Origin: Candidatus Zhuqueibacterota bacterium
GTDB lineage: Bacteria > Zhuqueibacterota > Zhuqueibacteria > Thermofontimicrobiales > Thermofontimicrobiaceae
Assembly: GCA_049322915.1 (NCBI GenBank)
Contig: JBMOPW010000034.1
Coordinates: forward strand, 128,001 to 192,000
DNA length: 64,000 nucleotides
Reading direction: 5' to 3'
Below, piece by piece: positions 4,152 through 30,618 of the stretch. Position 1 is the stretch's first letter, and the number at the start of each line of letters is the position of its first letter. Position numbers and translations under genes: made by a program. The notes under the pieces were generated by a model. That model was given only the letters and a program-made list of their open reading frames with translations, did no database searches and had not been told where the DNA came from.

Positions 4152-4207
4152 TTGAAAATCACCTCAACTATTTGAATTAACTGATACTATTATCACCCTT
4201 ATTTAAC

Positions 4208-4236: not shown

Positions 4237-4267
4237 CTCCCTGTAATCAATTTTCCCCTTATCCAAT

Positions 4268-4312
4268 AAAAGCCAATCCTGAAACACCCTATTCAGAATT
4301 GGCTTTTTATTT
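4268..4312. terminator. Bidirectional intrinsic terminator between convergent genes
   Basis: aaaagccaat-cctgaa / ttcaga-attggctttt stem with A and T tracts. Confidence 0.65.
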
Positions 4313-4347
4313 TTAAACAGAATTTTTTCCTGTATAACTGACTTCTG

Positions 4348-9162: not shown

Positions 9163-9172
9163 GAAACGGCTC

Positions 9173-10618
9173 CTATAAGTAAATGCTTTTTTCATTGAAA
9201 ATCGAATCGTCAGCGAAGTAGCGCGCCAATATTTCAAGACAGTGGTTGACGCTGCCGATTCGATCGACATCGATGTGATTCACCGAAACAGCATGCGCCG
9301 AAAACCAGCGCCAGATAATTTCGATTTGCTCAACTGTCAGTTCGCTTTCCGACGATTCAACGGGCTGCGATAGCCAGACAAGCCGGGATTCGATCATGCC
9401 CCAGTCCGGATGGAACCGATCAATTTCCAGCGACTGAGCCGCCTTTGATCCAGCGACAAAATAGAGGACAATGTGCGGCTCGATGGCGGCTGGAAGCAAT
9501 AGGACGAGCCGCCCGGATGCAACGGGCTGCGCGCCCGACGAATGAACTTCAAGCTGGGTGTTGATCTTCGGCCCGAATTGATGAATATACTTGTTCTCCA
9601 GCAGCAGCGCTTCCAGTTCCGAGCCGGTCGGTTCATAGACAAGATCGAAAATAGACGACTGAATGAGCGCTGTCTTCTCGTCGTTTCGCTGCCGCTGAAT
9701 AAAATAACTTCCCACTCGGGATTTGAGGCTCTTCGATTTCCCAACATAAATCACCGTATCCGATTTATCCTTCATCAGATAGACGCCGGGCGAATCAGGT
9801 AAACTGCGGAGATAGTCCCGGTCGAAATTATATCCCGAAAAATCGACCAGGATTTCTTTTTCTTGAATGAAGTCTTCCAACTGTTGCAGGGTTCGCAACC
9901 CATTCGTTTGCAGCGCATCGAACAGCGTGCTCATTATCTCATGCATGAGCGTCAAACGGCTGGGCAGCGTCAACGGCACTGGTATTGTGATCTGAAAATG
10001 CTCAGCGATCGTTTCAAGCGTGGTTGATTTGACATCGGGATTCCATTTTCGAATGGCATTTTTCAGATGAATGGACTCAAATTCATGCTCGATTCCCGAA
10101 TGATAATTCAGTCGAAATTTGAAATCATTTTCCACTCTTTGAGAGAGGCACACTGACGCCTTTGAGCTGTGAAGGTCATGAAGCACTGAAGGGACTTCCT
10201 GTTCAAATCGTCGGGAAACGCCTTCGAGCAGCGGGCTGGCGCTGATTGCGCGCAACAGATTTTCATTAAGATCGAGCGGCGGTTGGATGGCGCAGATTGA
10301 CTGCTGCGCAATTTTGGACTGGTCAATCCGTACGTATCCGAACAGCAGAGGGACAACGATTTTATTCAGGGTTACATATTCAAAGTCGTAAACGACGTAG
10401 CTCATTTCAGCGAGTGAAACATCCTGGCGCTGGCTTTTAACGCTCCACATGCCGGCTTCGTCGCGCACAAAGCGGCCATCCTGGTTCAGCATCGAATGGA
10501 CTATTTTTTCCATGTGCGCCGGATACTCACTTCCCGTGCGAAAAAAATGTGAAATGATTTCCTGAGAGGACACGCTCGCCCCTTTTTGCGCCAGATATTT
10601 ATAGATTTTTTCTTTCAT
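9173..10618 (-). CDS. GIY-YIG (UvrC-like) nuclease fused to a degenerate DnaQ-like N-terminal domain
   Basis: PDSPGVYLM...VIYVGKSKSLKSRVGSYF...ELEALLLE; YVVYDFE in the N-terminal part. Confidence 0.75.
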   Translation of the reverse strand: MKEKIYKYLAQKGASVSSQEIISHFFRTGSEYPAHMEKIVHSMLNQDGRFVRDEAGMWSVKSQRQDVSLAEMSYVVYDFEYVTLNKIVVPLLFGYVRIDQSKIAQQSICAIQPPLDLNENLLRAISASPLLEGVSRRFEQEVPSVLHDLHSSKASVCLSQRVENDFKFRLNYHSGIEHEFESIHLKNAIRKWNPDVKSTTLETIAEHFQITIPVPLTLPSRLTLMHEIMSTLFDALQTNGLRTLQQLEDFIQEKEILVDFSGYNFDRDYLRSLPDSPGVYLMKDKSDTVIYVGKSKSLKSRVGSYFIQRQRNDEKTALIQSSIFDLVYEPTGSELEALLLENKYIHQFGPKINTQLEVHSSGAQPVASGRLVLLLPAAIEPHIVLYFVAGSKAAQSLEIDRFHPDWGMIESRLVWLSQPVESSESELTVEQIEIIWRWFSAHAVSVNHIDVDRIGSVNHCLEILARYFADDSIFNEKSIYL

Positions 10619-11219
10619 CCGGCACCTTTTTTAACTTTTCGCGCCAGTAACCCCAGACGCCCCAGAGCAGCATGGCAATGAACGCAACGATTAACAGCCA
10701 GTTGGGAACATTGAAAGTATAGCCAAGCCAGATCAGGATGAAATAGCGAGGGCAACGGCCTGCAAATAGCGCTAATAAATATCTGGACAAAGGATAGCCA
10801 GTGGCGATGCTCAAAAATTTAAATGGATAAAAGGGGATCGGCGTAAAACCTGCAATCACAATCATGGCGAAGGGCGATTTATAAAAGAAATCGACGGATT
10901 TGGTGTAAAGCCTTTTATCATCATAAAGCTTTTTTACTTTACGATGTCGAAAGAGCGGCGTCAGCGTTTCGTAATCGATGAAGCCCGCAATCAACGTGCC
11001 CAGGGAAGCAGCGGCAACCGCAGCAAAGATATTGAATTCTTTGCCATAGTAAAGAAGCACTGGCTCGTGCGGTAAAAATGAAATGTAGACATGAGACGGG
11101 ATGGAATAGAGATAGAGCCATACAATACCCCGCATATCAGGTCTGTATTTCCAGATCAGCAGCGAGCCAATCGCAGATAAAACAAGGATGAGAATGAAAT
11201 AGACGTATTTTTTTTTCAT
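10599..11219 (-). CDS. DedA/VTT-domain membrane protein
   Basis: Hydrophobic; LPHEP, FTPIPFYPF, GRCPRY motifs. Confidence 0.7.
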   Translation of the reverse strand: MKKKYVYFILILVLSAIGSLLIWKYRPDMRGIVWLYLYSIPSHVYISFLPHEPVLLYYGKEFNIFAAVAAASLGTLIAGFIDYETLTPLFRHRKVKKLYDDKRLYTKSVDFFYKSPFAMIVIAGFTPIPFYPFKFLSIATGYPLSRYLLALFAGRCPRYFILIWLGYTFNVPNWLLIVAFIAMLLWGVWGYWREKLKKVPDERKNL

Positions 11220-11265: not shown

Positions 11266-11296
11266 GAAAAGCCTCACTGGAATTGTGAGGCTTTTC
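11266..11296 (-). terminator. Intrinsic terminator closing the redox operon
   Basis: gaaaagcctcac / gtgaggcttttc perfect 12-bp inverted repeat just past the flavoprotein stop. Confidence 0.7.
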
Positions 11297-11330: not shown

Positions 11331-13004
11331 TTATCGCATGGTTCCCAGGTAGGTGGTGGTCAATTGTCGTGTGCGGACATCGGGATTGCTGTAATCTGGC
11401 AGCAGCATCGGCGACACTGCGTCCATGATGCCGGCTTCTTCAACTTCCTTGTTGTAATTTCGGACATGGTCCAGATTCAGCTTTTTTGAAATGCTGGTTC
11501 CCTTGCAGTACTCCGCAGCATTTTTCCCGGCGATTCGCCCGAAGGCAGTCACATCCAGCAATGAATTTCCCATCAGCCGGTTTTCGCCATGAATGCCGCC
11601 CAGCACTTCGCCAGCGACATAGAGACCTTTGATGCTCGTCTCACAGCGGTTGTTTGCTTCCAACCCGCCGTTTTGATAATGCAACGTGGGGTAAATCAGC
11701 ATCGGCTCTTTGGAAATATCAATGCCGTAGCGTCGGAACAAAATGTGCTTGCCGGGGAATTCCCGACGAACCGTGCCTTCGCCATAGAGATCGTCAATCA
11801 TCGGCGAATCCAGCCACACTCCAAATTTTCCGGTCGGCGTTGGCACACCGTTTTTCCGTTCCGTCGAGCACTCTCTGATGATGGCCGCAGCTTCAACATC
11901 GCGGGGTTCACGCTCAAAGACGAACTGTTCGCCGTGAATATTGACCAGATTCGCTCCAGCGCCCCGCACCTTTTCGGTGATGAGAAGTCCCTCGGCCTGT
12001 TCCGGAAAAACAGCGCCGGTGGGATGATACTGAACCGTGTGCAGGAAACATACCGGCACACCCGCGCGATAGCCAATCACCAAACCATCCCCGGTTGCGC
12101 CATAATGGTTTGTCGTCATAAAATTCTGGATGTGCAACCGGCCGCTGCCACCTGTCGCGATGATGACAGACTTTGCTTTAATGATAAAATATTCCTCAGT
12201 TTCCATATTGTAAAGGACAGCGCCGCCGCATTTTCCAGTATCATCCATGAGGAGCTCCACCGCCGGGGAGAACTCGATCACGGTTATATCGCCGGGATGA
12301 TTTCTCACCTCGTCGCGAATGGTGCGCATAATTTCAGCGCCGGTGATATCGCCGGCGTAGTGCATTCGCTTGCGGGAAGTGCCGCCGCCGTGCATGGATT
12401 TCATCCTGCCATCCGGGAATTTGCTGAAAATCATCCCCAGTTTCTCCAACCAGGCTAGTACTTTCGGGGCTTCTGTGACCAACGTGTACGCTAATTCCGG
12501 ATCGTTGACAAAATGCCCGCCGCCCATGACGTCAAGATAATGATAGTACGGCGAATCCTTCCACGTTTTGCTCGCGCCCTGAATGCCGCCTTCTGCCATC
12601 ATGGTATTGGCATCGCCGTTTCGCAATTTTGTCGCAATGATGACTTTCGCGCCGTTCTCACGCGCCAGTAATGCGGCTGAATTACCAGCGCCTCCGCCGC
12701 CAATGACCAGAACGTCTGTCTCCATCCGCACATCATTCAGATTTATTTTATCCGGATTGACGCGGCTTTTAGCCTCGAGTATCGCAGCGTATTCGTTGCT
12801 GATAGCGTATCCTTTGCTCGGGCCAACCCTCAATTTTTTTCGAGTGCCCTGTATAAAATCAGGGTGAAAATTGCGCAGTATTTCCTGTCGTTTATCCACA
12901 GGGATAGCGGTAAATTCCTCTCCCCTCTTTTTTCGCTGAACGCGCTCAGGACGTGTCTTCTCAACCAGTTTTATTAGATTATTAAGTTCTGGTGTATATG
13001 CCAT
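11331..13004 (-). CDS. Fumarate reductase/succinate dehydrogenase flavoprotein-like (TfrA-type, probably non-covalent FAD)
   Basis: VIGGGGAG, NTMMAEGG, QYHPT, LHYQNGG, HGENRLMGNSL. Confidence 0.85.
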   Translation of the reverse strand: MAYTPELNNLIKLVEKTRPERVQRKKRGEEFTAIPVDKRQEILRNFHPDFIQGTRKKLRVGPSKGYAISNEYAAILEAKSRVNPDKINLNDVRMETDVLVIGGGGAGNSAALLARENGAKVIIATKLRNGDANTMMAEGGIQGASKTWKDSPYYHYLDVMGGGHFVNDPELAYTLVTEAPKVLAWLEKLGMIFSKFPDGRMKSMHGGGTSRKRMHYAGDITGAEIMRTIRDEVRNHPGDITVIEFSPAVELLMDDTGKCGGAVLYNMETEEYFIIKAKSVIIATGGSGRLHIQNFMTTNHYGATGDGLVIGYRAGVPVCFLHTVQYHPTGAVFPEQAEGLLITEKVRGAGANLVNIHGEQFVFEREPRDVEAAAIIRECSTERKNGVPTPTGKFGVWLDSPMIDDLYGEGTVRREFPGKHILFRRYGIDISKEPMLIYPTLHYQNGGLEANNRCETSIKGLYVAGEVLGGIHGENRLMGNSLLDVTAFGRIAGKNAAEYCKGTSISKKLNLDHVRNYNKEVEEAGIMDAVSPMLLPDYSNPDVRTRQLTTTYLGTMR

Positions 13005-13072
13005 GCCAACACCTCTCAAATTTTGAAAAGTCTATTTCAGAAATTTTGGTTACTTGTTCTTGGATTATAACA

Positions 13073-13831
13073 TTATAAATAACGCTTATCTTCCGGCTCC
13101 CACATCTCATCGGCATTGTCCGGTTCCATCTGTCTCTCTTTATACAAATTCATCAATTCGGTCTTTTCTTTCTTCATCAAATCCCTCAGCATGCTTTCGT
13201 AGCGACCGTCTTCAATCTGCTTCGTGCGCTCCTGCAAATGTTCCGCTTTGGGAAGGATATGCCGGCCATAAATTCGTCGCGACAAAATGCCAATGTTGTA
13301 TTGCACTTCCTCCGCCGGACAGCGGGCAGAGCAAAGTCCGCACATCACGCAGTCGAAGGACAACTCAGCCGCTTTCTCAATGTCGCCGGCCATCGCCATG
13401 GCCACATAATCCATCACTTTGATATCCATGGGACAGCTCAAGGTGCAGGTGTTGCATCCCATACATTTAAAAATTTCCGGGTACAATTTTGGTACATCTT
13501 CCCCGGTCGGGCTCAATTTTTCAATGTCATAGACCGCTTTGTTCCCCGGGAAAAATGGAATTTGCGTGATGTACATCTGCGGTTCGACGACCGTCTGGCA
13601 AGCCAGTCCATAATGGATTTTATAGTCATTCGGAAATCGGTAAATTGTCCCGCAGGCGCCGCAAATACCGCCGCGACAGCCGCATCCACGAATGAGTTGG
13701 TAACCGGCATATTCCATGGCTTTTTGAATGGTGAGAGAGTCAGGAACGTCGTACCGCTTGCCCATTATGAAAATGGGAATAAAATTTTTATTTTCAATCA
13801 GGCTGTCTTTTGGTTCTTTTGATTTACTCAT
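13073..13831 (-). CDS. FrdB/SdhB-like iron-sulfur subunit (2Fe-2S plus 2x4Fe-4S)
   Basis: GCRGGICGAC..LAC; CMGCNTCTLSCP; CVMCGLCSARCP. Confidence 0.85.
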   Translation of the reverse strand: MSKSKEPKDSLIENKNFIPIFIMGKRYDVPDSLTIQKAMEYAGYQLIRGCGCRGGICGACGTIYRFPNDYKIHYGLACQTVVEPQMYITQIPFFPGNKAVYDIEKLSPTGEDVPKLYPEIFKCMGCNTCTLSCPMDIKVMDYVAMAMAGDIEKAAELSFDCVMCGLCSARCPAEEVQYNIGILSRRIYGRHILPKAEHLQERTKQIEDGRYESMLRDLMKKEKTELMNLYKERQMEPDNADEMWEPEDKRYL

Positions 13832-13882
13832 TGAAACTCCTCCTGAACAGAGAATGTGCTGTATCTGAAAATTTATTGTAAT

Positions 13883-14380
13883 TTACCACGTGATAAAAAT
13901 TCCCAAAACAAAGCCAATAATGAGAGCGACTATCACCATGAAATAGTTGTCCAGCAATTTCATTTTCTTTGACTGGGGGATGACTTCGACCACTCGCTCC
14001 TCGACCACGAAATCCTTGATGGAAGTATCCACCTGTGGGCAGGACATAACGCAGGCATAACATTGTTCACAGTCCTCTGCAACCAGCGCTTCCAATGCAA
14101 ACGACGTACGCTGAACCGTGCGCGCTCTTCTGTCCGGCTCTCTTCGCAGCACCGGGCACGAATCGATGCAATTTCCGCAGGCAATGCAGGCGCGATCCCC
14201 TTCGATGGCGACATGCTGTGGCAAGTAGAGTCGATGATAGGGCTCTATTCCGCGTGAGAGCAGACGGCATCTGGCGACCGGTGGTTCTTTGATATCAAGA
14301 ACAGAATTCAAAACATTCTGGGTCTTGTCGGTTAAAAGCGTCTCTTTTGCAGTTATGTACGCCACAATTATCTCCTTCAC
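13883..14380 (-). CDS. 2x[4Fe-4S] ferredoxin-like protein with a C-terminal membrane anchor
   Basis: CIACGNCIDSCP, CEQCYACVMSCP; hydrophobic C-terminus. Confidence 0.8.
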   Translation of the reverse strand: MKEIIVAYITAKETLLTDKTQNVLNSVLDIKEPPVARCRLLSRGIEPYHRLYLPQHVAIEGDRACIACGNCIDSCPVLRREPDRRARTVQRTSFALEALVAEDCEQCYACVMSCPQVDTSIKDFVVEERVVEVIPQSKKMKLLDNYFMVIVALIIGFVLGIFITW

Positions 14381-14392
14381 AATATGTATTGG

Positions 14393-14500
14393 TTAACCCT
14401 ACAACGTCACTTGAATTTATTAGCACTATATATTGTATCTGCTAACAACCAAACATACAATATAGTGTGAGCAACTTGCTAAATGACGTTGTAGGGTTAA
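14393..14500. mobile_element. MITE-like 100-bp element with 13-bp terminal inverted repeats, flanked by TTAA
   Basis: TTAA-CCCTACAACGTCA ... TGACGTTGTAGGG-TTAA; a related left end occurs at 63777-63793. Confidence 0.6.
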
Positions 14501-14547
14501 TCTGTATCTTCAATTCGCCTCAATAATGAAGCCTGTTCATCGCCTGA

Positions 14548-15462
14548 CTACTCAGCCGATTCATCAATGTAGGGATGACATTTCACGCAATTTTCGTTTT
14601 GCGTCGTATCTTCACAGTCCGCTTTGAAAATTTGAAACTTCCCGTGTATTTGACCATGATGGCATTTCTGACAGGTTTCCACTTTCGGCGGCGCGACCGG
14701 CTCGCCGGGATGCGTCAGAGGAACGACATTTTCATGACAGCCAGCGCAGGTGATCGGGTTCCGAGCCACGAAGTTGACATTTTTATCAACGGTGGCGCTT
14801 TGATCATCGCCCATTTTATTTCTGAGGTGGCACTGCCCACAATTTCCGGTCTTAATTTTTTCGAGAAGTTGAATTTCAGCCTGTTTGTTTTCCATGATGA
14901 CTTTGTCGGAAATCAAATCCTGATACAATTTCTGATCGTCCGGGCTATACGTTTCAAATCGAAAATGCAGCCGCTTGTTGAAACGAAGTCCGATTTTTCT
15001 CAATGTGTCCGATGCCAGGAGGTATGGCTCGCGCTCGTCAACATCCAGCCTGTCCGGGTGACAGATGAGGCACTGCTCACTGGTATAGGTAGCGCGGGGC
15101 GCCACTTCTTTCGCGAATTTCAAATTCGCGGCATTCTCTGCAAACGTACCGCTTTTCTGAAAACTTCTTCCATAAATAGTCTGCACCGTCTTGTCCTTAT
15201 GGCACTGAACGCAGGTGAATTGGCTTTTATCGATCCCCTTATGGACGGGCAGGTCTTTGTCAAAATAAAAATAAGGTCCATTATTTTCATGGCAGTTATA
15301 ACAGAAATTCGACGTCTGGTTATAGGCGATCAGACTCGTTAAAAAAGTAATGGCGCCAATCGGAACTACAATGAGAATGACGAGCAAATAATGTTTGAAG
15401 ACAAAATCTTTGACTTTCCCGGGAAAGCGTATGACGTTTTGAATGAATGTCGTTATTTTCAT
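14548..15462 (-). CDS. Membrane-anchored multiheme cytochrome c (7 CXXCH)
   Basis: CYNCH, CVQCH, CLICH, CGQCH, CAGCH, CQKCH, CVKCH; N-terminal TM helix. Confidence 0.85.
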   Translation of the reverse strand: MKITTFIQNVIRFPGKVKDFVFKHYLLVILIVVPIGAITFLTSLIAYNQTSNFCYNCHENNGPYFYFDKDLPVHKGIDKSQFTCVQCHKDKTVQTIYGRSFQKSGTFAENAANLKFAKEVAPRATYTSEQCLICHPDRLDVDEREPYLLASDTLRKIGLRFNKRLHFRFETYSPDDQKLYQDLISDKVIMENKQAEIQLLEKIKTGNCGQCHLRNKMGDDQSATVDKNVNFVARNPITCAGCHENVVPLTHPGEPVAPPKVETCQKCHHGQIHGKFQIFKADCEDTTQNENCVKCHPYIDESAE

Positions 15463-15484
15463 TATCAGGACTCAGTTCATTTCG

Positions 15485-17719
15485 TTAGGCTTTTTCAATA
15501 GAAACGATGGTATCTTTTTCCGAAAGCCCAAGACCCAGTGTGTCTTTTTGGACTTCGATAAGAATATTGGTATTGACGCCGTTATGCTGTTTTTCCCACC
15601 ACAGGATGGCTGAGTCAGGATCAGCGGTTTCAACTTTTTTGCCCAGGGCAAAATTTCCCATGGCCCAATGTCCTAACCCGGAGCGAAGCGCAATCGCCCG
15701 GGGATGGACACCCTGGGATAGCCTCACTTCCGTTTCAATTTCCCCTGCTTTTGATTTCAATCGAATTTTCTGTCCATTGCGAATGCCCAATTTGTGAGCA
15801 GTTCTGGGATTAATCATGGCCTCGTTGACATGCGAAATCTCTGCCAACCATTTGGCATTGCCCGTGTTCGGCGTCATGACATTGCTCGTGAACGGAATTA
15901 AATAGAGCTGATTTCGGCTTAATTGAATCGGTTCCTGCAATGGAATATACCGGGGCAACTCGAACTCCCCTTTTCGCCGCAACTCGGATGAGGCTATTTC
16001 GAACTTCTTCGAAGGCGTCGCAAACCCTGATTTTTGATAAGTCACAAACGATCGGCCGGGATTGTCAGGCTCCCACATTCCCACTTTTTTCAAGTTATCG
16101 AAATCTTTGGCAGAATTCATCCCGGGAACCTGAGCGGCGATTTCTTTGAAATAATCTTCGACGTGTTTATAGTTCAAATTTTTCATGGCCGCGCCGCCAA
16201 TGGAAGAAGCCAGCAGTATCCAGATTTCAGCCAATGATTTGGACTCCCCGCGCGGAGCGATGGCCGGCTGTCCCAGCGTCACTTGCGGAACGAAATGGTA
16301 CGATGGGGCGACCGAAAGATCCCAGCTTTCCAGATGAGTGGCTGCTGGAAGCACAATATCGGCCAATGTGGCTGTTTCGCTCATTGCGGACTCGATGGCC
16401 ACAGCGAAAGGCACTTTCGATTCATCTGAAAATAGCTCTTTCATCATGTCGCTACTGGCGGAATCGTACACCGGGTTGCTGTGGAATGAAACGAGCGCAT
16501 CGATTTTTTCCCGGCCTTCGACCAATGCCTGGTAAAAATCAACGGGCGCATGGGACAGATCATCCTCGGCACCGAAGTCAGACAGATCGAATTTCTGCGG
16601 CAGGCAGTATCCACCTTTTTGATCGATATTGCCGACGACGGCATTCAAGAGCATGATCGATCGTTCGTTTTGAACGCCATTGCTCCGGCGGGTGACGCCG
16701 CTGCCAGACACAGCGACGGGATGTTGCCGTCGGGCGAACTCAATGGCCAGTTCCCTGATTTTTTGGGCAGGAATTGTGCAGATGGACTCGGCTTTTTCCG
16801 GCGTGAACTGACTCAGATAGGACTGCAATTCACTCGCGGAAATGTTAGTCCATCTGGCGATGAAATCGGCGTCGTGCAGTTGATTTTGCACGATGACATT
16901 GGCCAGGGTCAGAGCTAAAAGCGCATCGGTGCCCGGCATTATGGGCAGCCATTCTGCGCTTCTTCCGGCGGTATTGGACATGCGGGGATCGACAGTGACC
17001 AGGCGGGCGCCGTTGTTCATTTTTGCTTCAATGACCCGCTGGCTGATTGCCACGAACAACGGATGGGACTCAAAAAAGTTTGCGCCGAACGACAGGATGA
17101 AATCACTGTGCTCCACATCCGGAATTTCGTAACGCGCGCCCCAGGTAATTTTCTGGGCGTAATTTTTATTGAGATCGGAAAAGACCGGCGATGTGATGAC
17201 TCGGGCATCCCCCAACGATCTGATGAATCGACGACTCAATCCGGTGAGGTATCGCTCTTCCGAATTGAAGATGATTTCACCCGACCGTCCTGCCGAATCG
17301 CGGAGCCGCTCGGCAATTTCTCGCAACGCTTCCTGCCATGAGATTTTCTCCCAGGAACCGGCGCCGCGTTTTCCTTTTCGTTTCAGCGGCGTCAATGGGC
17401 GATTGGGATCATACACCAGATTCATCCCGGCAATGCCGCGCGCGCAAATCTTGCCACGATTGTTGGGATGGCGGGGATTGCCCTGAATTCCCATTAACCA
17501 GTCGTTTTCAAAAAAGCCAATGAGTCCGCACTGCGCCGGACAGAGATTGCAGAATGTGGGAGTGCCTTTGCGGAATTCTTCGGAGAGAAAGGAAACATTC
17601 TTGCCGGAGCTGCTGATCTCTGCGAACAGTGGGCTGAACTCATTCAGAAACAGTGTGGAAAAAAGTCCAGCCGATGTATATTTAATGAATTTTCGTCGAT
17701 TCAAATTTTGTTCAATCAT
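15485..17719 (-). CDS. Tat-exported molybdopterin oxidoreductase catalytic subunit (Psr/Phs/Arr/Ttr-like, DMSO reductase family)
   Basis: NRRKFIK Tat signal; CNLCPAQC...KICARG; VDPRMS, PGTDAL, ADIVLPA; C-terminal dinucleotide-binding domain. Confidence 0.85.
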   Translation of the reverse strand: MIEQNLNRRKFIKYTSAGLFSTLFLNEFSPLFAEISSSGKNVSFLSEEFRKGTPTFCNLCPAQCGLIGFFENDWLMGIQGNPRHPNNRGKICARGIAGMNLVYDPNRPLTPLKRKGKRGAGSWEKISWQEALREIAERLRDSAGRSGEIIFNSEERYLTGLSRRFIRSLGDARVITSPVFSDLNKNYAQKITWGARYEIPDVEHSDFILSFGANFFESHPLFVAISQRVIEAKMNNGARLVTVDPRMSNTAGRSAEWLPIMPGTDALLALTLANVIVQNQLHDADFIARWTNISASELQSYLSQFTPEKAESICTIPAQKIRELAIEFARRQHPVAVSGSGVTRRSNGVQNERSIMLLNAVVGNIDQKGGYCLPQKFDLSDFGAEDDLSHAPVDFYQALVEGREKIDALVSFHSNPVYDSASSDMMKELFSDESKVPFAVAIESAMSETATLADIVLPAATHLESWDLSVAPSYHFVPQVTLGQPAIAPRGESKSLAEIWILLASSIGGAAMKNLNYKHVEDYFKEIAAQVPGMNSAKDFDNLKKVGMWEPDNPGRSFVTYQKSGFATPSKKFEIASSELRRKGEFELPRYIPLQEPIQLSRNQLYLIPFTSNVMTPNTGNAKWLAEISHVNEAMINPRTAHKLGIRNGQKIRLKSKAGEIETEVRLSQGVHPRAIALRSGLGHWAMGNFALGKKVETADPDSAILWWEKQHNGVNTNILIEVQKDTLGLGLSEKDTIVSIEKA

Positions 17720-17743
17720 GCTTTTAAAATCCCAATCTCATGG

Positions 17744-18640
17744 TTAAATCAGCGGTAAATGTTCGCCACCCAGAACGACCACATATCGCATGAAGAAAAT
17801 GCCAATCATCACCAGGACAGAAGCGATAACCAAATTTCTTACAGATCTGAATCGCGGGGTCACGATGATTGTGAGTGGAATAATTTTGCCTAATATGTTT
17901 TCAATGAAAATGAAGTACGGGCTGAATTCATGGTACATCAATAAATCGGCCGCTTCTTTCGCTTCGGTGTGGGACGTGATCAAAACGATGACGTCGCTCA
18001 AAACGAGAAACAGGTCAAACACAATGACGCCGGCCAGAATTGTACCCAGTGAATAAATCAAGCTCGTGTTGACTATTTTCTCCTTTGTGAAAAAGCGGTC
18101 CCGAATATAACAGACCAAAATCATCATAGCAATACCAGACACCATGGCAGAGACAAGAAACAAAATCGGCATCAATGCTGTGTTCCAAAGCGCCCTGGCT
18201 TTTGCCAGCGCCAGAATGAATCCGGTGTAGCCGTGCACCATAATTGCCAGAGGTAGGCCAATTAACCCGAAGGTTTTCGTAAGTTTCATGTTTCCCTTGA
18301 ACATGAAATAACCGTAGATAATTGAGTTGATCGGGTAAAGCGTCAGCAGAAAGGATCCCCAACTGATGGGCGATGTGAAATTGATATAGGCGAACAAATG
18401 CCAGGGTTTGAGCGGTTGGCCAACATGGATCAGCAAAAACATCGGAGCGGCTACGAGAAGAATGGTTGCCAATACGACCCCGATTTTTCCCAGTGGTTTG
18501 AACTTGGTCAATCCAAAGCCATAGGCCAGTGTGGACATGATGAACGAGCCAGCGCTCAAACCGGTCAAATAAAAATAGAGGGCAATATAAATTCCAAATG
18601 TCTCTTGAATGTGAATGTTATACAGGAGCTCGACATTCAT
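17744..18640 (-). CDS. NrfD/PsrC-family membrane anchor
   Basis: YFYLTGLSAG, TSPISWG, HGYTGF..ARALWN, FFMRY. Confidence 0.9.
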   Translation of the reverse strand: MNVELLYNIHIQETFGIYIALYFYLTGLSAGSFIMSTLAYGFGLTKFKPLGKIGVVLATILLVAAPMFLLIHVGQPLKPWHLFAYINFTSPISWGSFLLTLYPINSIIYGYFMFKGNMKLTKTFGLIGLPLAIMVHGYTGFILALAKARALWNTALMPILFLVSAMVSGIAMMILVCYIRDRFFTKEKIVNTSLIYSLGTILAGVIVFDLFLVLSDVIVLITSHTEAKEAADLLMYHEFSPYFIFIENILGKIIPLTIIVTPRFRSVRNLVIASVLVMIGIFFMRYVVVLGGEHLPLI

Positions 18641-18643
18641 GGA

Positions 18644-19231
18644 TTACTCTTCCTTTTTCTCTTTTATGTCCGCTGTTTGCAGATCAATGTCGATATAAAA
18701 TACATGAGGATCGGTTCCCATCATCGGTTTCAGGACAGAGACGTTATTGGTGGCAATCAATTTTGCAATTTCGCTATTCTCGTCATTCAGATCGCCAAAG
18801 ATCCGCGCGCCAACCGGACACGCATCCACGCATGCTGGTGGAAGCCCTTTCTCCACGCGATGCACGCACCAATCGCATTTCTGACAGAAATTCATAATCG
18901 GATTGATGTACCTGACGCCGTAAGGACAGGCCGCCATGCAATAGCGACAGCCGATGCAGAGATGCGGATCGATCGTCACAATACCATCCTCTCGCTTTTT
19001 TGAGGCGTAGGTCGGACAGACAGTGACGCAAATTGGATCTTCACAATTATTGCACAGCAGCGGTAAAAACGAAATCGATGTGTTGGGATATTCGCCCTTT
19101 GCAGCCTGTTTCACCCACGACCGCCAGACGCCCAATGGCACGCTGTTTTCGCTTTTGCATGCGACAGAGCACGTGTTGCAGCCTATGCATCGCCGTAAAT
19201 CTATCAGAAAGCCGTATCGTTTCTTCGCCAA
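18644..19231 (-). CDS. NrfC/PsrB-family 4x[4Fe-4S] subunit
   Basis: CIGCNTCSVAC, CNNCEDPICVTVCP, CIGCRYCMAACP, KCDWC, PACVDACP; GGAGG before TTG. Confidence 0.9.
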   Translation of the reverse strand: MAKKRYGFLIDLRRCIGCNTCSVACKSENSVPLGVWRSWVKQAAKGEYPNTSISFLPLLCNNCEDPICVTVCPTYASKKREDGIVTIDPHLCIGCRYCMAACPYGVRYINPIMNFCQKCDWCVHRVEKGLPPACVDACPVGARIFGDLNDENSEIAKLIATNNVSVLKPMMGTDPHVFYIDIDLQTADIKEKKEE

Positions 19232-19470
19232 ACTTAACAACCTCCATTTATTTAAAGAGAAAGTGAGAATAATCAGAATGAAACCGGTTCCGTGTCAGTA
19301 GTCGGGATGACGTTACTTTCTTCACCTTCCTCATTCCTCCACGAAGGAAAGAATTCGAATCTGAGAGTGTCATCGTAAATCGGATAGTCGCATGTCGAAA
19401 TCACCTCCAGCTTAACCAGTTGATAGACTGATTTTCCAACTATCCTGATTATTCCACTTTCCGTTCTCTA

Positions 19471-20436
19471 TTATACCATTTTTTTTGCTCGTTCTCTTTG
19501 TCGCACAAAACTGATGGCTGCTGCCGCGATGCTGGGTCCCGAATCCCCCACCGGACATTTCCCAGCGCAGCGGGAGCACGCCACGCAATATTTCGCCAAC
19601 CTCTTGACTTTTTCATAATCGCCCAACCGCGTGGCCAGAACCATGGTCATGGGATAGGGTTCGCCATCGACGATTTTCACGGGACAGGCGCCCACGCAGG
19701 TCTGACAATTGTAACAATTCAATGCCTGCCCAGTGCCTTGAATCAACGCTGGCTGCAATGTATAGTCAAATACTAAGACGATGCAAAACAGAATGGCCAG
19801 CGCATTCAACGTCGTCATATCAAATTGAAATCTGGAAAAGTAATGCATCACGTTTGTCACGGCATTGAATTCCGGATGTTCCGGCATACCCGATAACACC
19901 GCCATGGAAACCGCTTCGCGGAACCCTTCCATGGTTTCGATGGAACCGTGAATTGTTGGCGGCACAAAATCGATGTCCAGCCGATTCGCCTTGATCACCT
20001 GGTCGGCAAGCCCGTCCAGCGCTGAAATCATTTCCTGATGCTGCAGAATATCGATGGCCTGAATTTTTCCATCTTCAACATTGACAGCAACATGAATGGG
20101 GCCGCGAAGCCCGGATCCTGCGCCGAGAAATTCGCCATTTTCAACCCAGGCAAGGTCAGGCGGGAAATGCTCTTTGATGTAGCTCGACACGCGCTGATAT
20201 TGCACAATGTAATAAAGTCCGAAAACAATTCCCAAAATCAAGACAGGGATGATGATGATAAAATAGGATTGCTTTCGAACGATGTACGTTTTAATTGCGC
20301 TGTACAGCAACAGAATTCCCAGAAGAGCAAAAAGCAAAAACCTTCCGGAAACGAAAGCGAACGCTGTGATGACAGTCAGCATGGCCAAACGCCATGGCCG
20401 CTCATATATGATTGAGAAATTTAGTTTAGCCAACAT
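19471..20436 (-). CDS. Membrane protein with an FMN-binding-like domain and a C-terminal HdrC-like 2x[4Fe-4S] domain
   Basis: GSGLRGPIHVAVNVEDGKIQAIDIL; CYNCQTCVGACP, CVACSRCAGKCP; several TM helices. Confidence 0.7.
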   Translation of the reverse strand: MLAKLNFSIIYERPWRLAMLTVITAFAFVSGRFLLFALLGILLLYSAIKTYIVRKQSYFIIIIPVLILGIVFGLYYIVQYQRVSSYIKEHFPPDLAWVENGEFLGAGSGLRGPIHVAVNVEDGKIQAIDILQHQEMISALDGLADQVIKANRLDIDFVPPTIHGSIETMEGFREAVSMAVLSGMPEHPEFNAVTNVMHYFSRFQFDMTTLNALAILFCIVLVFDYTLQPALIQGTGQALNCYNCQTCVGACPVKIVDGEPYPMTMVLATRLGDYEKVKRLAKYCVACSRCAGKCPVGDSGPSIAAAAISFVRQRERAKKMV

Positions 20437-21019
20437 TGCCTCCAGAGACGTCGGAGCGATTCAACCATTGCGCCACTTCATCGATAAAGCCTTTATTGAT
20501 CAGCCCTTTTTCGAAGGCATGCTGCACCATGCTTCGAGGAATTTTGTTCTCGCGCAATGCCTTCATGGTCAGCAACTGCATGCTGCCGAAAATCTGGGGA
20601 AGGTTCAAATATTGCACGCAAAAGCCCTGACAGTTGCCGCAGCGAATGCAGCGCAATCCTCCATTCCGCAAAAACCGATTGTAATCTGTCACGCGGGCAG
20701 CGACCACCAGTTCGGCCTGAAACGCAATGCCCACCGGACATTTATCCTGAGTTCCGTAACACGCGCGGCATTCGTAGCAATAGATGCTTTGCGGAATGCC
20801 ATTCAGCACAGCTTTGCCGACATCGATTGCCAGAATCGTGGCAATGCCCAGCATGGCCGCCCGATTGAGATTGATGGTGAGCGCGCGATCATTGACGTTC
20901 GCGAAAAACTGAAAGCGCCGAATCCCCGGCATCACCATGGGCTGGTCTTCCTGAAAGCGGACAGCGGTCGGTTTGGTTTCCTTCTCTTTGCTGCTTTGTG
21001 TATGTTCGTTTTCCATCAT
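20426..21019 (-). CDS. HdrC-like 4Fe-4S protein (start uncertain)
   Basis: CYECRAC..KCP, CIRCGNCQGFC. Confidence 0.7.
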   Translation of the reverse strand: MMENEHTQSSKEKETKPTAVRFQEDQPMVMPGIRRFQFFANVNDRALTINLNRAAMLGIATILAIDVGKAVLNGIPQSIYCYECRACYGTQDKCPVGIAFQAELVVAARVTDYNRFLRNGGLRCIRCGNCQGFCVQYLNLPQIFGSMQLLTMKALRENKIPRSMVQHAFEKGLINKGFIDEVAQWLNRSDVSGGNVG

Positions 21020-21211
21020 GATTTCAATTCTATGTAAATGGTTCATTAATTTGGCAGCATCAACGCCATTAGCAGTCCCGCGATTAAGCCACCCAACGCG
21101 CCTTGCATGAGCTCTTTCGGAGTTTTCATATCCAGAGAATACGCAATGATGACTCCGGAAACAGCGCCGGCAAAAAGGAATGATAGAATCGTCAACAAAT
21201 TTCAATCCTCT

Positions 21212-22900
21212 CTATTTGGTTCTTCTTACAATCGACAATGTTTTAGGAACCATGCCTCCGATGAGTAAGGCAGCGAAGGTTCCACCGATGAAGCCCTGAA
21301 TCAGTTGCATCAGTTTGAAATCATAAACCGAAAGCGCCAGTACTGCCCCGGCAATTCCACCGGAGACCAGAAAATAAACGAGCTGCATTTTCCAGTTGCG
21401 ATTTGTATCTTTGCTCAGGGTTCGACTCACGAACGACATGATTCCGATAGAAATGAGGACGACGACTAATGTGTATACGGCCAGCATTAGCAGGTCCTGG
21501 GAGAAGTCCGGATTATTGGGAGAAAACACAGTGAAATTCATGAACTTCATGTAGATTGCAGCAATCGGCGCCATTATGGCCATTGAAGCGAATGTGTAGG
21601 CGCCTTTGATATAGCCGGTTTCAGCGCGCATCTGGCCTTCGCCCATTGTACCTCCGCCGCCGAGCGGCGATGGTCCGCAGGATGTGGTGGCGTTGATCAT
21701 GTAAGCGGACATGACGATGGCCAATTGGGGCCATGTGATTAAATTGAATTTGGCCGGGCCGAAAAGATACAGCACAGGAACAAGCGCTGCCGTGAGAATT
21801 CGGGAGCATGAAAGAGGCAGAATTGTCTGCATCTGAACGAAAATTGCCAGCATCCCGGCAACGCCCAATATCTGAACGGATGACAGACTTTTCAGGATCA
21901 CGCCAAGCGCATCGAATCCGCCAGTGGCGGCCAACGAACCGGCTGCCATGAATCCGGCTGCCATGGCAGTGACTGGCAGAAGAATAATACCGTTCATCAA
22001 ACTCTGGATGGAAGCGCCGCACAGAAGCACAATCAAGATACCGCCAGCAACGAGCACTGTTTGCACCGGCATTTTACCGAACGGCTGGAAAATGGCGATG
22101 AGCAATGATGCGATGAAAATGAAAAGCGACAAATACCCTTTGAAGGGCGCTTTTACTTTCGGTTGGCTGACTCTCTCTTCGGCGGGCCGATTCGTCGGTT
22201 TATCGCGAAGCGAGACATCCTCGGGATAGAGTTTTTGGGAGATAATTTTCAAAAAAAGCGCGGTCAGGGCAGTGCCAATCATCAGCGCAAAGGCCTGCGG
22301 CGAGCGCAGAATGCCGTCGCTGGCGGTCGGAAAAAAAGCACCGAGGAAACCTTCGCCGATTTGCCCAACGCCGCCAATGGGCGACGGGCCGCACGATCCC
22401 ATGGCATTTCGTGTGAAAGCGCCAATTAGTACAATCAACTGAGTCCGTGTGAGGATGCCCATTCCACCTTCATAGCCGAACGAAAAAAGGAGCGGCAGCA
22501 ATGCAGCAGCGATAATTCGTCCGCACGGCAGTGAAGCGATGACCGGCAAATTGATGATGATGACGAGGGTTCCGGCGATGCCGATCGGGGTTTTTCTCAG
22601 CTTGTCGATGATGACTTTTAACGCATCGAACCCTTTGGTTGCGTCCAGTGCGCCTGCCAAAAACAATCCCCCCAGCAGTGCGGTGATAGGATGTAAAATG
22701 ATACCGCCGATCATCTCATTTGGAAGCAGCAGCGCGCTTTTCAATCCATCGGTAGAAATTCGAAAGATGGCCCCAATGATCAAACACACCAGGCTTACTA
22801 AAACGAGGACCGTCTGAACAGGTAAATTAATTTTTCTGAATAGCGTTAAAACCATGGTGACGATGAAGATCGTCAACGTAATATAACCTAAAAACTCCAC
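21212..22900 (-). CDS. Polytopic membrane transporter, possibly ion-transporter superfamily (carboxylate carrier-like)
   Basis: Very hydrophobic 562 aa; internal duplication PVQTVLV..ILxP.TA...L.AT.GFDAL...SCGPSP.GG. Confidence 0.55.
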   Translation of the reverse strand: MEFLGYITLTIFIVTMVLTLFRKINLPVQTVLVLVSLVCLIIGAIFRISTDGLKSALLLPNEMIGGIILHPITALLGGLFLAGALDATKGFDALKVIIDKLRKTPIGIAGTLVIIINLPVIASLPCGRIIAAALLPLLFSFGYEGGMGILTRTQLIVLIGAFTRNAMGSCGPSPIGGVGQIGEGFLGAFFPTASDGILRSPQAFALMIGTALTALFLKIISQKLYPEDVSLRDKPTNRPAEERVSQPKVKAPFKGYLSLFIFIASLLIAIFQPFGKMPVQTVLVAGGILIVLLCGASIQSLMNGIILLPVTAMAAGFMAAGSLAATGGFDALGVILKSLSSVQILGVAGMLAIFVQMQTILPLSCSRILTAALVPVLYLFGPAKFNLITWPQLAIVMSAYMINATTSCGPSPLGGGGTMGEGQMRAETGYIKGAYTFASMAIMAPIAAIYMKFMNFTVFSPNNPDFSQDLLMLAVYTLVVVLISIGIMSFVSRTLSKDTNRNWKMQLVYFLVSGGIAGAVLALSVYDFKLMQLIQGFIGGTFAALLIGGMVPKTLSIVRRTK

Positions 22901-22927
22901 CTTTTCCTCATCAATTTTTGGGATGGT

Positions 22928-23260
22928 CTATCGAGCGCACGTGTTCTGAAATCCTGATTTCTTTTTAAGTGAAAATGGCAGATTCACTAAATACTTATCG
23001 TCTGTCTGAGAGATGTGAACAGTGTCACCAATCTGAATATTCCCCATGCACATCGTGCATTTCGAGGCTTCGGCTTCGATGATTGTCCCATTGGACAACT
23101 TCACCTTCATGCGGCTCAAAATGAACTCCTCGATGCCAAGTCGCGCCGGGCAAAACTCGAGCACGGTTCCTTTCCGGTGATTTTTGATGCGGTAAATTTC
23201 TGTGGCCACATAAAAAAGAATGAGCCCGAGAAATGTGTAAAATGATACAGTATCGTACAT
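22928..23260 (-). CDS. Hypothetical membrane-anchored protein with CxxC
   Basis: Tightly packed in the operon; N-terminal TM; CTMC. Confidence 0.6.
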   Translation of the reverse strand: MYDTVSFYTFLGLILFYVATEIYRIKNHRKGTVLEFCPARLGIEEFILSRMKVKLSNGTIIEAEASKCTMCMGNIQIGDTVHISQTDDKYLVNLPFSLKKKSGFQNTCAR

Positions 23261-23263
23261 CGG

Positions 23264-24223
23264 CTACATACTCCAGGAGAACACATTCACTTGTTTCAGC
23301 TCTGAATCCGTGACATACAGGCGGGACGCGGCGTCGATGGAAATCGAGACAGGCCGTTTCAATCCTTCCGTCCAAACACCAATGAAACCGCCTTCAGGGG
23401 TAAACTTTTGAATACGGCCGTTGACGGTATCGCAGACGTATACATTCTGCTGACCATCGAGGCTGATGGCTTCTGGCAAATTGAGCTGACCTTTGCCGCT
23501 TCCGTTTTCAGAAAATTTGAATTGAAACATGCCGTCACTGGAAAGCACTTTCACCTGGCCATGTTTGCTATCGACGACGTAGATCGTGCCATTTTCCGCA
23601 ACCGCAACATCGGTGACAATGCGGAACCGATAGTCACTGCTACCCCGAGCCAGATTCTTGGGATCATCGCCCAGATCGCCAAAATTGGCAACGAGCGACA
23701 GGGTCGATTTATCGTACACAGCCAGCATGTGATTGCGAGTGTTGCAGACGTAAATTTTATCCCGGACAAAAATTCCTTTGGGGGTATAAAATGCTTCAGG
23801 GTATCCACCGACGGCGCCGAATTGCTGTTTGTAATTGCCCAGGGCATCCAGAATGACAACTCGCCCGTTATTTGAATCGACGACATAAACGTCACTGGTG
23901 TCCGCATCAATAGCAATTCCCTGAGGATAATTGAATTGACCAGCGCCGGAACCAGGCTGTCCGACCCGGCGAATTGGCGTCCCTTTTTCATCGAAAATAT
24001 GCACGCAATACCCACCTGCGTCGGTGACATAGATGGTGCCGTTGGGGCTAACAGCCACGCCGTAAGGATCGATGAAGCCGCGAATCGTTAGTGTAGCCGG
24101 GGTGCTTCGGACAATTTTTGGAAAGGAGAAGCTGATAGCGGAAGCCGCGCTCAAAGCAAGACTGGTTTTGAGGAATTTGCGACGAGTAATTTTGTGAGAC
24201 TGATTTCGATTTTCGTTCATCAT
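23264..24223 (-). CDS. Tat-exported NHL-repeat beta-propeller protein
   Basis: TRRKFLK; repeated FNYPQGIA..VYVVDS.NGRV motifs. Confidence 0.85.
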   Translation of the reverse strand: MMNENRNQSHKITRRKFLKTSLALSAASAISFSFPKIVRSTPATLTIRGFIDPYGVAVSPNGTIYVTDAGGYCVHIFDEKGTPIRRVGQPGSGAGQFNYPQGIAIDADTSDVYVVDSNNGRVVILDALGNYKQQFGAVGGYPEAFYTPKGIFVRDKIYVCNTRNHMLAVYDKSTLSLVANFGDLGDDPKNLARGSSDYRFRIVTDVAVAENGTIYVVDSKHGQVKVLSSDGMFQFKFSENGSGKGQLNLPEAISLDGQQNVYVCDTVNGRIQKFTPEGGFIGVWTEGLKRPVSISIDAASRLYVTDSELKQVNVFSWSM

Positions 24224-24391: not shown

Positions 24392-24420
24392 AATATAAAT
24401 GATGATTGTTTAAAAGTCAA
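24392..24420 (-). promoter_or_regulatory. sigma70-like promoter TTGACT-17-TATATT
   Basis: Same TTGnnn-17-TATATT pattern as upstream of rimP, tRNA-Arg and the permease. Confidence 0.65.
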
Positions 24421-30421: not shown

Positions 30422-30543
30422 CCTTGTTGAAAGCAGCGCTTGTGGAGAGATAGCGGATTAGGTATCACATCGTTCGCTTTTATTGAGCAAAAAAAAACCG
30501 CAATACTCATTCTATCAAGTGTACTGCGGCTTGTAATAAATAG

Positions 30544-30618
30544 TCGGGGCGAGAAGATTTGAACTTCCGACCCCTTGACCCCCAGTCAAGTGCGCTAACC
30601 GGACTGCGCTACGCCCCG
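30544..30618 (-). tRNA. tRNA-Pro(GGG)
   Basis: CGGGGCGTAGCGCAG...CTTGA CT GGG GG TCAAG...GTTCAAATC...CGCCCCGA cloverleaf. Confidence 0.95.

Follow-up and report, generated by a model that had tools for sequence, protein, structure and literature searches.

We analyzed a cluster of 12 genes in a 64,000-nucleotide stretch of DNA from a Candidatus Zhuqueibacterota bacterium (contig JBMOPW010000034.1 of assembly GCA_049322915.1, positions 128,001 to 192,000). This whole stretch is called the window here, and all coordinates refer to it unless another locus is named. The cluster consists of co-directional open reading frames (ORFs) on the minus strand that fill positions 11331-24223. They are numbered g01 to g12 in the order in which they are read. 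Comparison with related loci indicates that the cluster is a composite of two parts with separate histories. The first is a cassette (g06-g09) for an iron-sulfur (Fe-S) subunit, an NrfD-type membrane subunit, a MopB subunit and a multiheme cytochrome c. The second is a frame (g01-g05 and g10-g12), which surrounds the cassette and includes a flavoprotein similar to fumarate reductase. The combination does not match any described respiratory complex. We propose, with a probability of roughly 45%, that the cluster encodes a composite membrane-bound fumarate-respiration system of KSB1-type bacteria, coupled to a periplasmic redox module.

Domains were assigned by Pfam and NCBIfam profile scans and by reading of the translations. 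An original prediction, made from the letters of the window, had placed 12 co-directional genes with named domains in this region, and the profile matches and ORFs bear it out. A MopB alignment was used for a profile scan of genome contigs, which found 455 relatives. The best 80 loci of the 455 were kept, and the 12 proteins and three flank proteins were compared to them by tblastn. The order and orientation of the 12 genes are identical in all five loci with full flanks (L002, L006, L007, L032 and L045). Four additional loci are limited by their contigs and are consistent with this order, with g05-g12 found in L001, g08-g11 in L004, g07-g09 in L005 and g07-g08 in L003. The modules therefore co-occur in a fixed order, and the conservation of this order indicates that the arrangement is more than chance. 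The cluster-bearing records are labeled 'candidate division KSB1' or 'uncultured Cytophagia'. The genes flanking the cluster in the window are also common to L007 and L002.

In the other 71 of the 80 loci, cassette genes are found without flanking frame genes. MopB is accompanied by PsrB and/or PsrC only, and no g01-g04 or g09-g12 was detected in them by tblastn. A single weak fragment of g05 was found in one of these loci, L037. A FastTree phylogeny was built from 79 MopBs after removal of three short rows. It groups the nine cluster-linked MopBs as a single clade with a support of 100, nested among Thermodesulfobacteriota sequences.

The frame proteins are far better conserved between the cluster loci (g03 81-89%, g10 72-87%, g11 70-83% and g12 79-88% identity) than the cassette proteins (MopB 43-54%, cytochrome 40-56% and NrfD 60-85%). 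The MopB subunit g08 is the least conserved, and evolves faster than the NrfD or Fe-S subunit. The two parts also differ in their phylogeny. The concatenated cassette proteins (g06-g09) place the window with L001 and L006, whereas the concatenated frame proteins (g05 and g10-g12) place it with L002 and L007, which share its flanks. In approximately unbiased (AU) tests, with groups picked after the identity table had been seen, the grouping of each module was rejected on the data of the other (p 4e-78 and 4e-36). The break points between the two histories are located in the g05|g06 and g09|g10 gaps. The strong conflict between the trees indicates that the cassette was swapped in place, yet it was kept in all loci seen. 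Every complete locus has it within the frame, flanked by g05 and g10, and in the loci seen it was never lost or moved. The in-place replacement argues for selection on keeping the cassette and the frame together; it does not by itself prove a physical link.

Low-GC (0.33-0.34) insertions are found in two of the loci, at positions 3730-4780 and 6960-8500 of L045 and at positions 5650-6670, 7630-8400 and 13300-14030 of L002. They sit exactly at g03|g04, g05|g06 and g09|g10 and contain small, toxin-antitoxin-like gene pairs, among whose products PIN-like and RelE/ParE-like proteins were recognized by eye. L045 also has, at positions 7588-8034, a second, partial copy of the C-terminal Fe-S domain of g05.

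Flavoprotein, permease-like protein and ferredoxins of the frame

g12 (11331-13019) is an FrdA/TfrA-like flavoprotein, with a match to FAD_binding_2 of 252.8 bits. Its likely start is at 13004, as in the database gene call, which gives a protein of 557 amino acids. It was aligned to E. coli FrdA, in which the residues of the HPT, TExxR, PRD, HY and NRL motifs are H232, T244/E245/R248, R287, H355 and R390. The catalytic residues H332, T348, E349, R373, H447 and R481 of g12 are invariant in 121 of 121 rows. Asn138, which is present in all of these rows, occupies the position of His44, the residue that forms the covalent link to flavin adenine dinucleotide (FAD) in FrdA. All eight positions checked are invariant in the same alignment. 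When the covalent flavin link is lost in FrdA and SdhA, the enzymes can still reduce fumarate but no longer oxidize succinate. An Asn at the position of the FAD-linking His fits an enzyme that reduces fumarate and does not oxidize succinate. The FrdA-like fumarate reduction put forward in the original prediction is in agreement with this complete fumarate-reductase active site, and fumarate itself is the probable substrate.

The N-terminal extension of g12, about 93 residues long, is a family trait, and has a mean identity of 65% compared to 82% for the core. Among the matches listed, at least 120 relatives were found, with identities of 73% or higher and with KSB1, Calditrichota, Zixibacteria and Thermodesulfobacteriota among their names. 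This family is much wider than the linked MopB clade, for which 36 matches at 43% identity or above were found. The best NCBIfam match of g12 is TfrA, with 348.7 bits at a cut-off of 718, and its best sdhA/frdA subfamily score is 284 at a cut-off of 567. L-aspartate oxidase was set aside as an assignment, since the nadB score is 275 (cut-off 453) and an SdhB-like partner dedicated to g12 is present.

This partner, g11 (13073-13831), is an SdhB/FrdB-like Fe-S subunit with a 2Fe-2S motif and two CxxCxxCxxxCP motifs. It matches Fer2 and Fer4_9, and its scores are low for TfrB (26.6 vs a cut-off of 385) and dhsB (25 vs 88). The second full CxxCxxCxxxCP motif stands at the site of the 3Fe-4S motif. 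No CCG domain was found in g11 by Pfam or NCBIfam. The same scans found no CCG domain, no FrdC/D or SdhC/D anchor and no heme-b anchor among the 12 proteins or the flanking ORFs, consistent with the earlier claim that the cluster has no FrdC/SdhCD anchor and no HdrB/CCG subunit.

FrdABCD, SdhABCD, type E SdhABEF and MFR are similar to g12 and g11 in the conserved flavoprotein active site and the SdhB-like 2Fe-2S subunit. Unlike these enzymes, the proteins of the cluster include no FrdC/D or SdhC/D anchor, no heme b and no SdhE/CCG subunit. They have an Asn in place of the FAD-linking His, a second CxxCxxCxxxCP in place of the 3Fe-4S motif, the 93-residue N-terminal extension and no long C-terminal domain, and they reach no NCBIfam cut-off. 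TfrAB of methanogens is similar in other respects. TfrA is the best match of g12, and the Fe-S partner is similar to an SdhB-like part that has HdrC-like ferredoxin modules. However, the TfrA score is below its cut-off and no CCG (HdrB/D-type) domain is present. A thiol donor is therefore not indicated.

g03 (21212-22900) encodes a polytopic, permease-like protein of 562 residues with an IT/DASS-type fold and two homologous halves. g03 has no match in Pfam at all, and for it and 18 relatives no match to a transporter family (CitMHS, Na_sulph_symp and similar) was found there. Its Atlas features (0.94; 179 shared) point to carriers of the SLC13, CitMHS and NhaC types. An AlphaFold2 model was obtained with a predicted local distance difference test score (pLDDT) of 77.9 and a predicted template modeling score (pTM) of 0.82. 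Foldseek matched this model to MleN, VcINDY with fumarate or succinate bound, NaDC1/3, INDY, Pho90, ArsB, TRAP-M and AbgT. The Foldseek probability is 1.00 and the TM-scores of the transporter matches are 0.33-0.63, and the shared fold includes two inverted repeats and helical hairpins. A transporter had been predicted at this position, and the fold of di- and tricarboxylate carriers bears this out. Judging from the model, a transporter is a reasonable assignment for g03, with C4-dicarboxylates as a guess at what it carries.

Each half of g03 carries a PCGR-type motif and an SCGPSP motif. Four cysteines (C126, C170, C365 and C408) are found in 128 of 128 rows of an alignment that extends down to 26% identity. 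In the model, these four Cys are located in the coil breaks of the broken helices and at the helical-hairpin tips of the two pseudo-symmetric halves. DASS carriers bind the substrate and the coupling ions at these coil breaks and hairpin tips. DASS/SLC13 and IT carriers (VcINDY, NaDC1/3, MleN and ArsB) share the fold of g03, with its two inverted halves and helical hairpins. In contrast, g03 has no membership in their sequence families, and its SCGPSP/PCGR motifs and four Cys are found where the SNT hairpin tips of these carriers would be.

Between the cluster loci, g03 is as conserved as the catalytic flavoprotein. Its family is rare, with 75 related representative clusters in a full HMMER scan of 1.84 billion representatives. 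A word-indexed search found 371 relatives, of which about 42 are at least 79% identical. The next 78 among the matches listed have identities of 66-71%, with Syntrophales, Syntrophaceae, Desulfomonilaceae and Desulfomonile among their names. The families of g03, g05 and the flavoprotein are spread far more widely than the linked MopB clade. In some relatives of g03 (P0255, P0259 and P0269), units of half length are fused to N-terminal domains that are beta-helix/NosD-like, CARDB-like or similar, which gave no lead to a function.

Three proteins of the frame contain ferredoxin domains next to hydrophobic segments. g04 (20426-21205) is a membrane-associated, HdrC-like protein with two Cys clusters, CxxCxxCx7CP and CxxCxxCxxxC, and one hydrophobic segment. 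Conservation among its orthologues begins at an MMENE start, which indicates that the real start is likely near 21019 (about 197 residues). Its NCBIfam matches are weak (RnfC E 4e-5, HdrC E 0.008). g10 (13883-14380) is a tail-anchored, HdrC-like 2x[4Fe-4S] ferredoxin with Fer4 family matches (HdrC E 9e-7), and its hydrophobic segment, from residue 147 to 165, forms the C-terminus. g05 (19471-20436) has hydrophobic segments at its N-terminus, followed by a domain similar to those binding flavin mononucleotide (FMN), a further hydrophobic segment and an HdrC-type 2x[4Fe-4S] domain with Fer4_8/9/17 matches; three hydrophobic segments were scored in all. From these motifs and segments, g04, the C-terminal domain of g05 and g10 are assigned as HdrC-like dicluster ferredoxins with hydrophobic anchors. 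The ferredoxin domains of g04, g05, g10 and g11 also have weak RnfC-type matches.

The middle domain of g05 matches FMN_bind in Pfam with 19.3 bits, below the cut-off of 22 (E 0.0019). In a low-confidence model (pLDDT 55.8), Foldseek matched this domain to FMN-binding domains, NqrC and RnfG, with TMt of 0.73-0.80 and a best E of 3.5e-3. The nearest Atlas cluster contains 192 'FMN-binding protein' sequences, most commonly from Thermodesulfobacteriota. The would-be flavinylation site is HG[S/A]IE in seven of seven sequences. The canonical flavinylation motif is [S/T]GA[T/S]. Scans of the 12 cluster proteins and of 33 other ORFs of the window found no ApbE. In these features g05 differs from the NosR/NapH-like flavinylated Fe-S proteins: its FMN_bind match is sub-threshold, the canonical motif is absent, no ApbE was seen in the ORFs scanned in the window, and its Fe-S domain is of the HdrC type (Fer4_8/17), with the NapH-type domain PF12801 not among its Pfam matches. 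The predicted layout of g05, in which membrane segments join an FMN-binding-like domain outside to an Fe-S domain inside, is similar to theirs as given in the accessible part of a flavinylation survey (PMC8238504). The transmembrane systems listed there are NapH-like, MsrQ-like, PepSY, DsbD and Rnf/Nqr-like.

Among the 12 proteins, twin-arginine translocation (Tat) motifs are found on g01 and g08 only. Fe-S domains without a Tat signal remain cytoplasmic, and g04, the Fe-S domain of g05, g10, g11 and g12 would therefore be located in the cytoplasm. The middle domain of g05 would be located outside. g01 (23264-24223) is an NHL-repeat six-bladed beta-propeller (PF01436, 103 bits) with a Tat signal (TRRKFLK), which would place it in the periplasm. 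Its orthologues in five loci are 46-68% identical. g02 (22928-23260) is a protein of 110 residues with a hydrophobic N-terminus and a CxxC (CTMC) motif. It has no match in Pfam or NCBIfam, and its CT[MV]C motif is invariant in six of six sequences.

MopB, NrfD, Fe-S and cytochrome subunits of the cassette

g06 (18644-19240) is a four-cluster Fe-S subunit of the PsrB/NrfC/DsrO type (Fer4_11, 88.9 bits). Its NCBIfam scores are 213.8 for TtrB (cut-off 416) and 195.6 for DsrO (cut-off 200). g07 (17744-18640) is an integral membrane subunit of the NrfD/PsrC type (PF03916, 153.6 bits), and NrfD proteins of other phyla are up to 68% identical to it. g08 (15485-17719) is a MopB subunit with a Tat signal and FS0 cysteines, and matches PF00384, PF01568 and PF04879. 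g09 (14548-15462) is a membrane-anchored heptaheme cytochrome c with a NapC/NirT-like N-terminus. It contains seven CxxCH motifs and an N-terminal hydrophobic segment, and matches Cytochrom_NNT with an E of 1.1e-7. Six of seven orthologous ORFs also have seven CxxCH motifs, and the seventh has four.

The best solved relative of g08 is PsrA of Thermus thermophilus PsrABC (PDB 2VPW), with an E of 2.7e-47. Its score against PhsA is 309.1 bits, below the curated cut-off of 694. An alignment of 50 MopB sequences from several phyla was used to analyze its conservation. The RRKF (Tat) motif and the FS0 residues C57, C60, C64 and C92 are invariant, as are the FGxNP, DPR, PGTD, NP and D..LP motifs, which we take to be pterin-binding. 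In contrast, Cys173 of PsrA, the molybdenum (Mo) ligand, aligns with Ser181 of g08, where members of the family have various residues (S, T, D, N, Y, E and others). Neither Cys, Sec, Ser nor Asp is conserved at the ligand position in the 50 sequences. Asn184, three residues after Ser181, is invariant in all of them. An acidic residue is often, not always, present at -2 or -3 in the ligand region. These MopBs may have an unusual Mo ligand, or no protein ligand. On this evidence g08 could be catalytic, as a molybdoenzyme whose ligand is unusual, or could serve as a scaffold. A periplasmic Mo-dependent reaction had been predicted for the cluster. The MopB subunit with its Tat signal and FS0 Cys is present as this requires, but the reaction is insecure because the canonical Mo-ligand Cys of PsrA is not conserved.

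The cassette is not restricted to the cluster. Outside it, 61 loci have at least 900 nucleotides downstream of MopB and could be tested for a cytochrome gene. In 50 of the 61, an ORF with 5-21 CxxCH motifs starts within 1 kb of MopB on the same strand, and 48 of these 50 ORFs have a hydrophobic N-terminus. The Fe-S, NrfD, MopB and multiheme cytochrome genes are a recurrent, free-standing four-gene module. It is found in Thermodesulfobacteriota, Scalindua-type Planctomycetota, Chloroflexota, Nitrospirota, Armatimonadota and others. The Psr-like part with its cytochrome, named in the original prediction, is thus present, but as a widespread cassette that is not special to this cluster.

None of the cassette proteins reaches a curated NCBIfam cut-off for Qrc, Psr/Phs, Ttr, Arr or Dms. 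PsrABC/PhsABC (T. thermophilus, PDB 2VPW) is similar in its Tat-signal MopB with FS0, four-cluster Fe-S subunit and NrfD anchor. Compared to it, the cassette has Ser181 at the position of PsrA Cys173, a PhsA score below the cut-off and an extra NapC/NirT-like multiheme subunit.

Proposed electron transfer and alternatives

In the system we propose, the frame would provide a cytoplasm-facing fumarate reductase that consists of g12, with non-covalent FAD, and the SdhB-like g11. The reductase, which has no heme-b or CCG anchor, would be tethered and fed by the tail-anchored g10 and the membrane-anchored g04 and g05. g03 would most likely exchange fumarate for succinate. The cassette would be a periplasm-facing, quinone-interacting redox module that takes electrons from a periplasmic donor, possibly a reduced sulfur compound, into menaquinone. 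In the frame, menaquinol would be oxidized at the membrane segments, and its electrons would reach FAD and then fumarate by way of the Fe-S chain. Wolinella succinogenes provides a precedent, as it couples sulfide oxidation to fumarate reduction. An electron chain from the periplasmic to the cytoplasmic side was also part of the original prediction. Both modules do co-occur in a fixed order, and the electron link between them is one that we infer.

Several observations weigh against this proposal. No quinone site was identified in the frame. The cassette is found alone in many phyla and the frame families are found in other phyla, which means that the data call for no physical or electronic coupling. 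The variable Mo-ligand position and the fast evolution of g08 make catalysis by MopB uncertain. Four invariant Cys at the presumed binding site of g03 are unexpected for a carboxylate carrier, and the proposed scheme assigns no role to the FMN-binding-like domain of g05, which would face outward. Separate transcription is allowed for by the gaps of 167-230 nucleotides, and by the insertions of toxin-antitoxin-like genes that L002 and L045 have at the same boundaries. The choice of AU-test groups in view of the identities counts here as well.

Several of these observations would agree with two independent quinol-oxidizing terminal reductases that are merely co-located and co-regulated. A periplasmic Psr/Phs-like enzyme with its own cytochrome would then use sulfur or another oxyanion acceptor, and the fumarate reductase would have its own carrier. 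The cassette appears self-sufficient, being alone in 71 of 80 loci and accompanied by a cytochrome gene in 50 of the 61 testable ones. Gaps and insertions are tolerated at the module boundaries, and the cassette and frame trees conflict. In the accessible part of a survey of the KSB1 phylum, phsA is read as a thiosulfate/polysulfide reductase (PMC9012183). However, the cassette lies between g05 and g10 in every complete locus and was replaced in the same slot, the ligand Cys of PsrA is absent from g08, and the frame has no recognizable quinol-oxidizing anchor of its own. We consider two separate reductases rather unlikely.

A second alternative concerns the role of MopB. The subunit could be a non-catalytic scaffold as in Qrc and alternative complex III, which would make the cassette a cytochrome c:menaquinone oxidoreductase. 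Periplasmic or extracellular electron carriers, and not a Mo substrate, would feed the quinone pool and thereby fumarate reduction, so that on the fumarate side this alternative overlaps with our proposal. The cassette and QrcABCD have the same four-part make-up (multiheme cytochrome, MopB-like, Fe-S and NrfD), which is also that of alternative complex III, and NrfD is the best-conserved subunit. The QrcB model aligns with g08 over its full length (230 bits), the ligand position is variable, MopB evolves faster than the NrfD or Fe-S subunit, and a multiheme cytochrome gene is nearly always attached. On the other hand, the scores do not reach the Qrc cut-offs (QrcB 230.4 vs 440, QrcC 122.8 vs 400 and QrcD 61.8 vs 570), and the gene order differs from that of qrcABCD. 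The invariance of the Tat motif, FS0 Cys and presumably pterin-binding motifs across the 50 sequences also speaks against it. Such a scaffold role is improbable in our view.

The four Cys of g03 are not explained by a plain carboxylate carrier, and they are the basis of a third alternative. Electrons would pass from the cassette through g05 and g03 to the cytoplasmic ferredoxins g04 and g10 and on to the fumarate reductase, by a direct transmembrane path that needs neither quinone nor heme. The four mid-membrane Cys would hold an Fe-S center or act as a dithiol/disulfide relay, following the logic of Rnf and Nqr (NqrD/E-NqrC, RnfA/E-RnfG) on an unrelated elevator-type scaffold. The invariance of these Cys and their location at coil breaks and hairpin tips in the model agree with such a path. 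So do the conservation of g03 at the level of the catalytic flavoprotein, the matches of the g05 domain to FMN-binding domains, NqrC and RnfG, the weak RnfC-type matches and the lack of a heme-b protein or classical anchor in the cluster. This alternative is very doubtful, as the fold of g03 is that of secondary carriers and not NqrD/E, no RnfA/E-NqrD/E, RnfD/NqrB or RnfG/NqrC family match was found among the 12 proteins in Pfam or NCBIfam, g05 has a poor model and no canonical flavinylation motif, and ApbE is absent from the 33 other ORFs scanned.

A respiratory complex in which fumarate reduction is joined to such a cassette was not found among known systems. The periplasmic cytochrome c, DsrO-like Fe-S protein, NrfD subunit and cytoplasmic HdrC/D-like Fe-S proteins of DsrMKJOP and HmcABCDEF are similar to parts of the cluster. 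However, the cluster has no heme-b subunit of the DsrM/HmcE type and no CCG domain, its score for DsrP is 78 against a cut-off of 350, and its cytoplasmic end is a fumarate-reductase pair. In the accessible part of a review of NrfD complexes, those covered are Psr, Nrf, ACIII, Dms, Ttr, Sre, Soe, Qrc, Nhc, Hyd-2, Dsr, Arr, Mcc and a tentative Fqo, and none of them is described with a flavoprotein (PMC8076601). In its accessible part, the KSB1 survey annotates phsA only (PMC9012183). The cluster is not described in the accessible parts of papers on estuary metagenome-assembled genomes and Caldithrix (PMC4411801, PMC5317091). A full-text literature search, which did not extend to subscription-only papers and supplements, found no description of it. 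The original prediction had stated that no described complex of this make-up was known to its author. This agrees with the literature search and with the scans, in which no catalytic subunit reaches a curated cut-off.

If the parts work together as we propose, the cluster would represent an undescribed design of respiratory complex. Its fumarate reductase would be anchored and fed by membrane-tethered HdrC-type ferredoxins only, with no heme b, CCG domain or classical anchor, and would be joined to an exchangeable periplasmic molybdoenzyme/cytochrome cassette. The proposal would also suggest a function for the 'hypothetical' families of g02, g03, g04 and g05. The relatives of g03 (those with names, including Syntrophales and Desulfomonilaceae) and of g05 (those in the Atlas cluster) are mainly from Thermodesulfobacteriota. 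For the poorly known KSB1-type lineages it would add a trait of energy metabolism to the 'phsA' that is their only annotation of this kind in the accessible part of the phylum survey (PMC9012183). Two further puzzles are the lack of the usual Mo ligand in a widespread clade of MopBs, and a protein with a carrier fold that has four invariant Cys at its presumed binding site.

Transcription signals and surrounding genes

A sigma-70-like promoter match, TTGACT-17-TATATT, is located at 24392-24420 on the minus strand, in the 278-nucleotide gap upstream of g01. It agrees with the consensus at 10 of 12 positions, and is a consensus match alone. A palindromic, terminator-like hairpin with a 12-bp stem is located at 11266-11296, 34 nucleotides past the stop codon of g12. 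The frequencies of such sites in the whole scan are not above chance, with 26 promoter-like sites compared to 18.6 +/- 4.4 expected and 19 terminator-like sites compared to 16.4 +/- 4.0 expected. Most genes of the cluster overlap or lie 3-53 nucleotides apart. Three larger gaps are found at the module boundaries, about 190 nucleotides at g03|g04, 230 at g05|g06 and 167 at g09|g10. Of the predicted transcript from one promoter to one terminator, both sites exist; given the three gaps, a single operon of 12 genes is plausible at most. A search of the three gaps with Rfam found no molybdenum cofactor (Moco) riboswitch or other RNA element; the sole match was to a miRNA family, at chance level (E 0.99).

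The base composition across the region is unremarkable, and the cluster is surrounded by ordinary chromosomal genes. An S9 peptidase gene is located upstream, genes for DedA/VTT and GIY-YIG proteins downstream, and nusA-infB-truB-pnp and kdp farther away. The two downstream genes encode a 481-residue GIY-YIG-domain protein (9173-10618) and a DedA/VTT-family membrane protein (10599-11219), both on the minus strand with an overlap of 20 nucleotides. In L007, homologues of both directly follow the cluster; in L032 and L045, a homologue of the GIY-YIG gene does.

Beyond these genes, a gene on the minus strand (4348-9270) encodes a C25 gingipain-family peptidase of 1640 residues, in which a propeptide is combined with an Ig-like domain and, at the C-terminus, a FlgD_ig-like domain. 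Two more peptidases, one C1-like and one of the S9 family, are encoded near it, and this set fits a protein-degrading lifestyle. An amylo-alpha-1,6-glucosidase (GDE_C) of 1065 residues with a C-terminal glucodextranase-type SLH-like binding module is encoded at 954-4151 on the plus strand. A complete kdpABC potassium pump is located at 57039-63423 on the minus strand together with a gene for a KdpD-like sensor, and no response-regulator domain was found in the ORFs scanned. The only matches in the window at the Rfam gathering level are tRNA-Pro(GGG) at 30543-30618 and tRNA-Arg(CCT) at 45547-45621, both on the minus strand.

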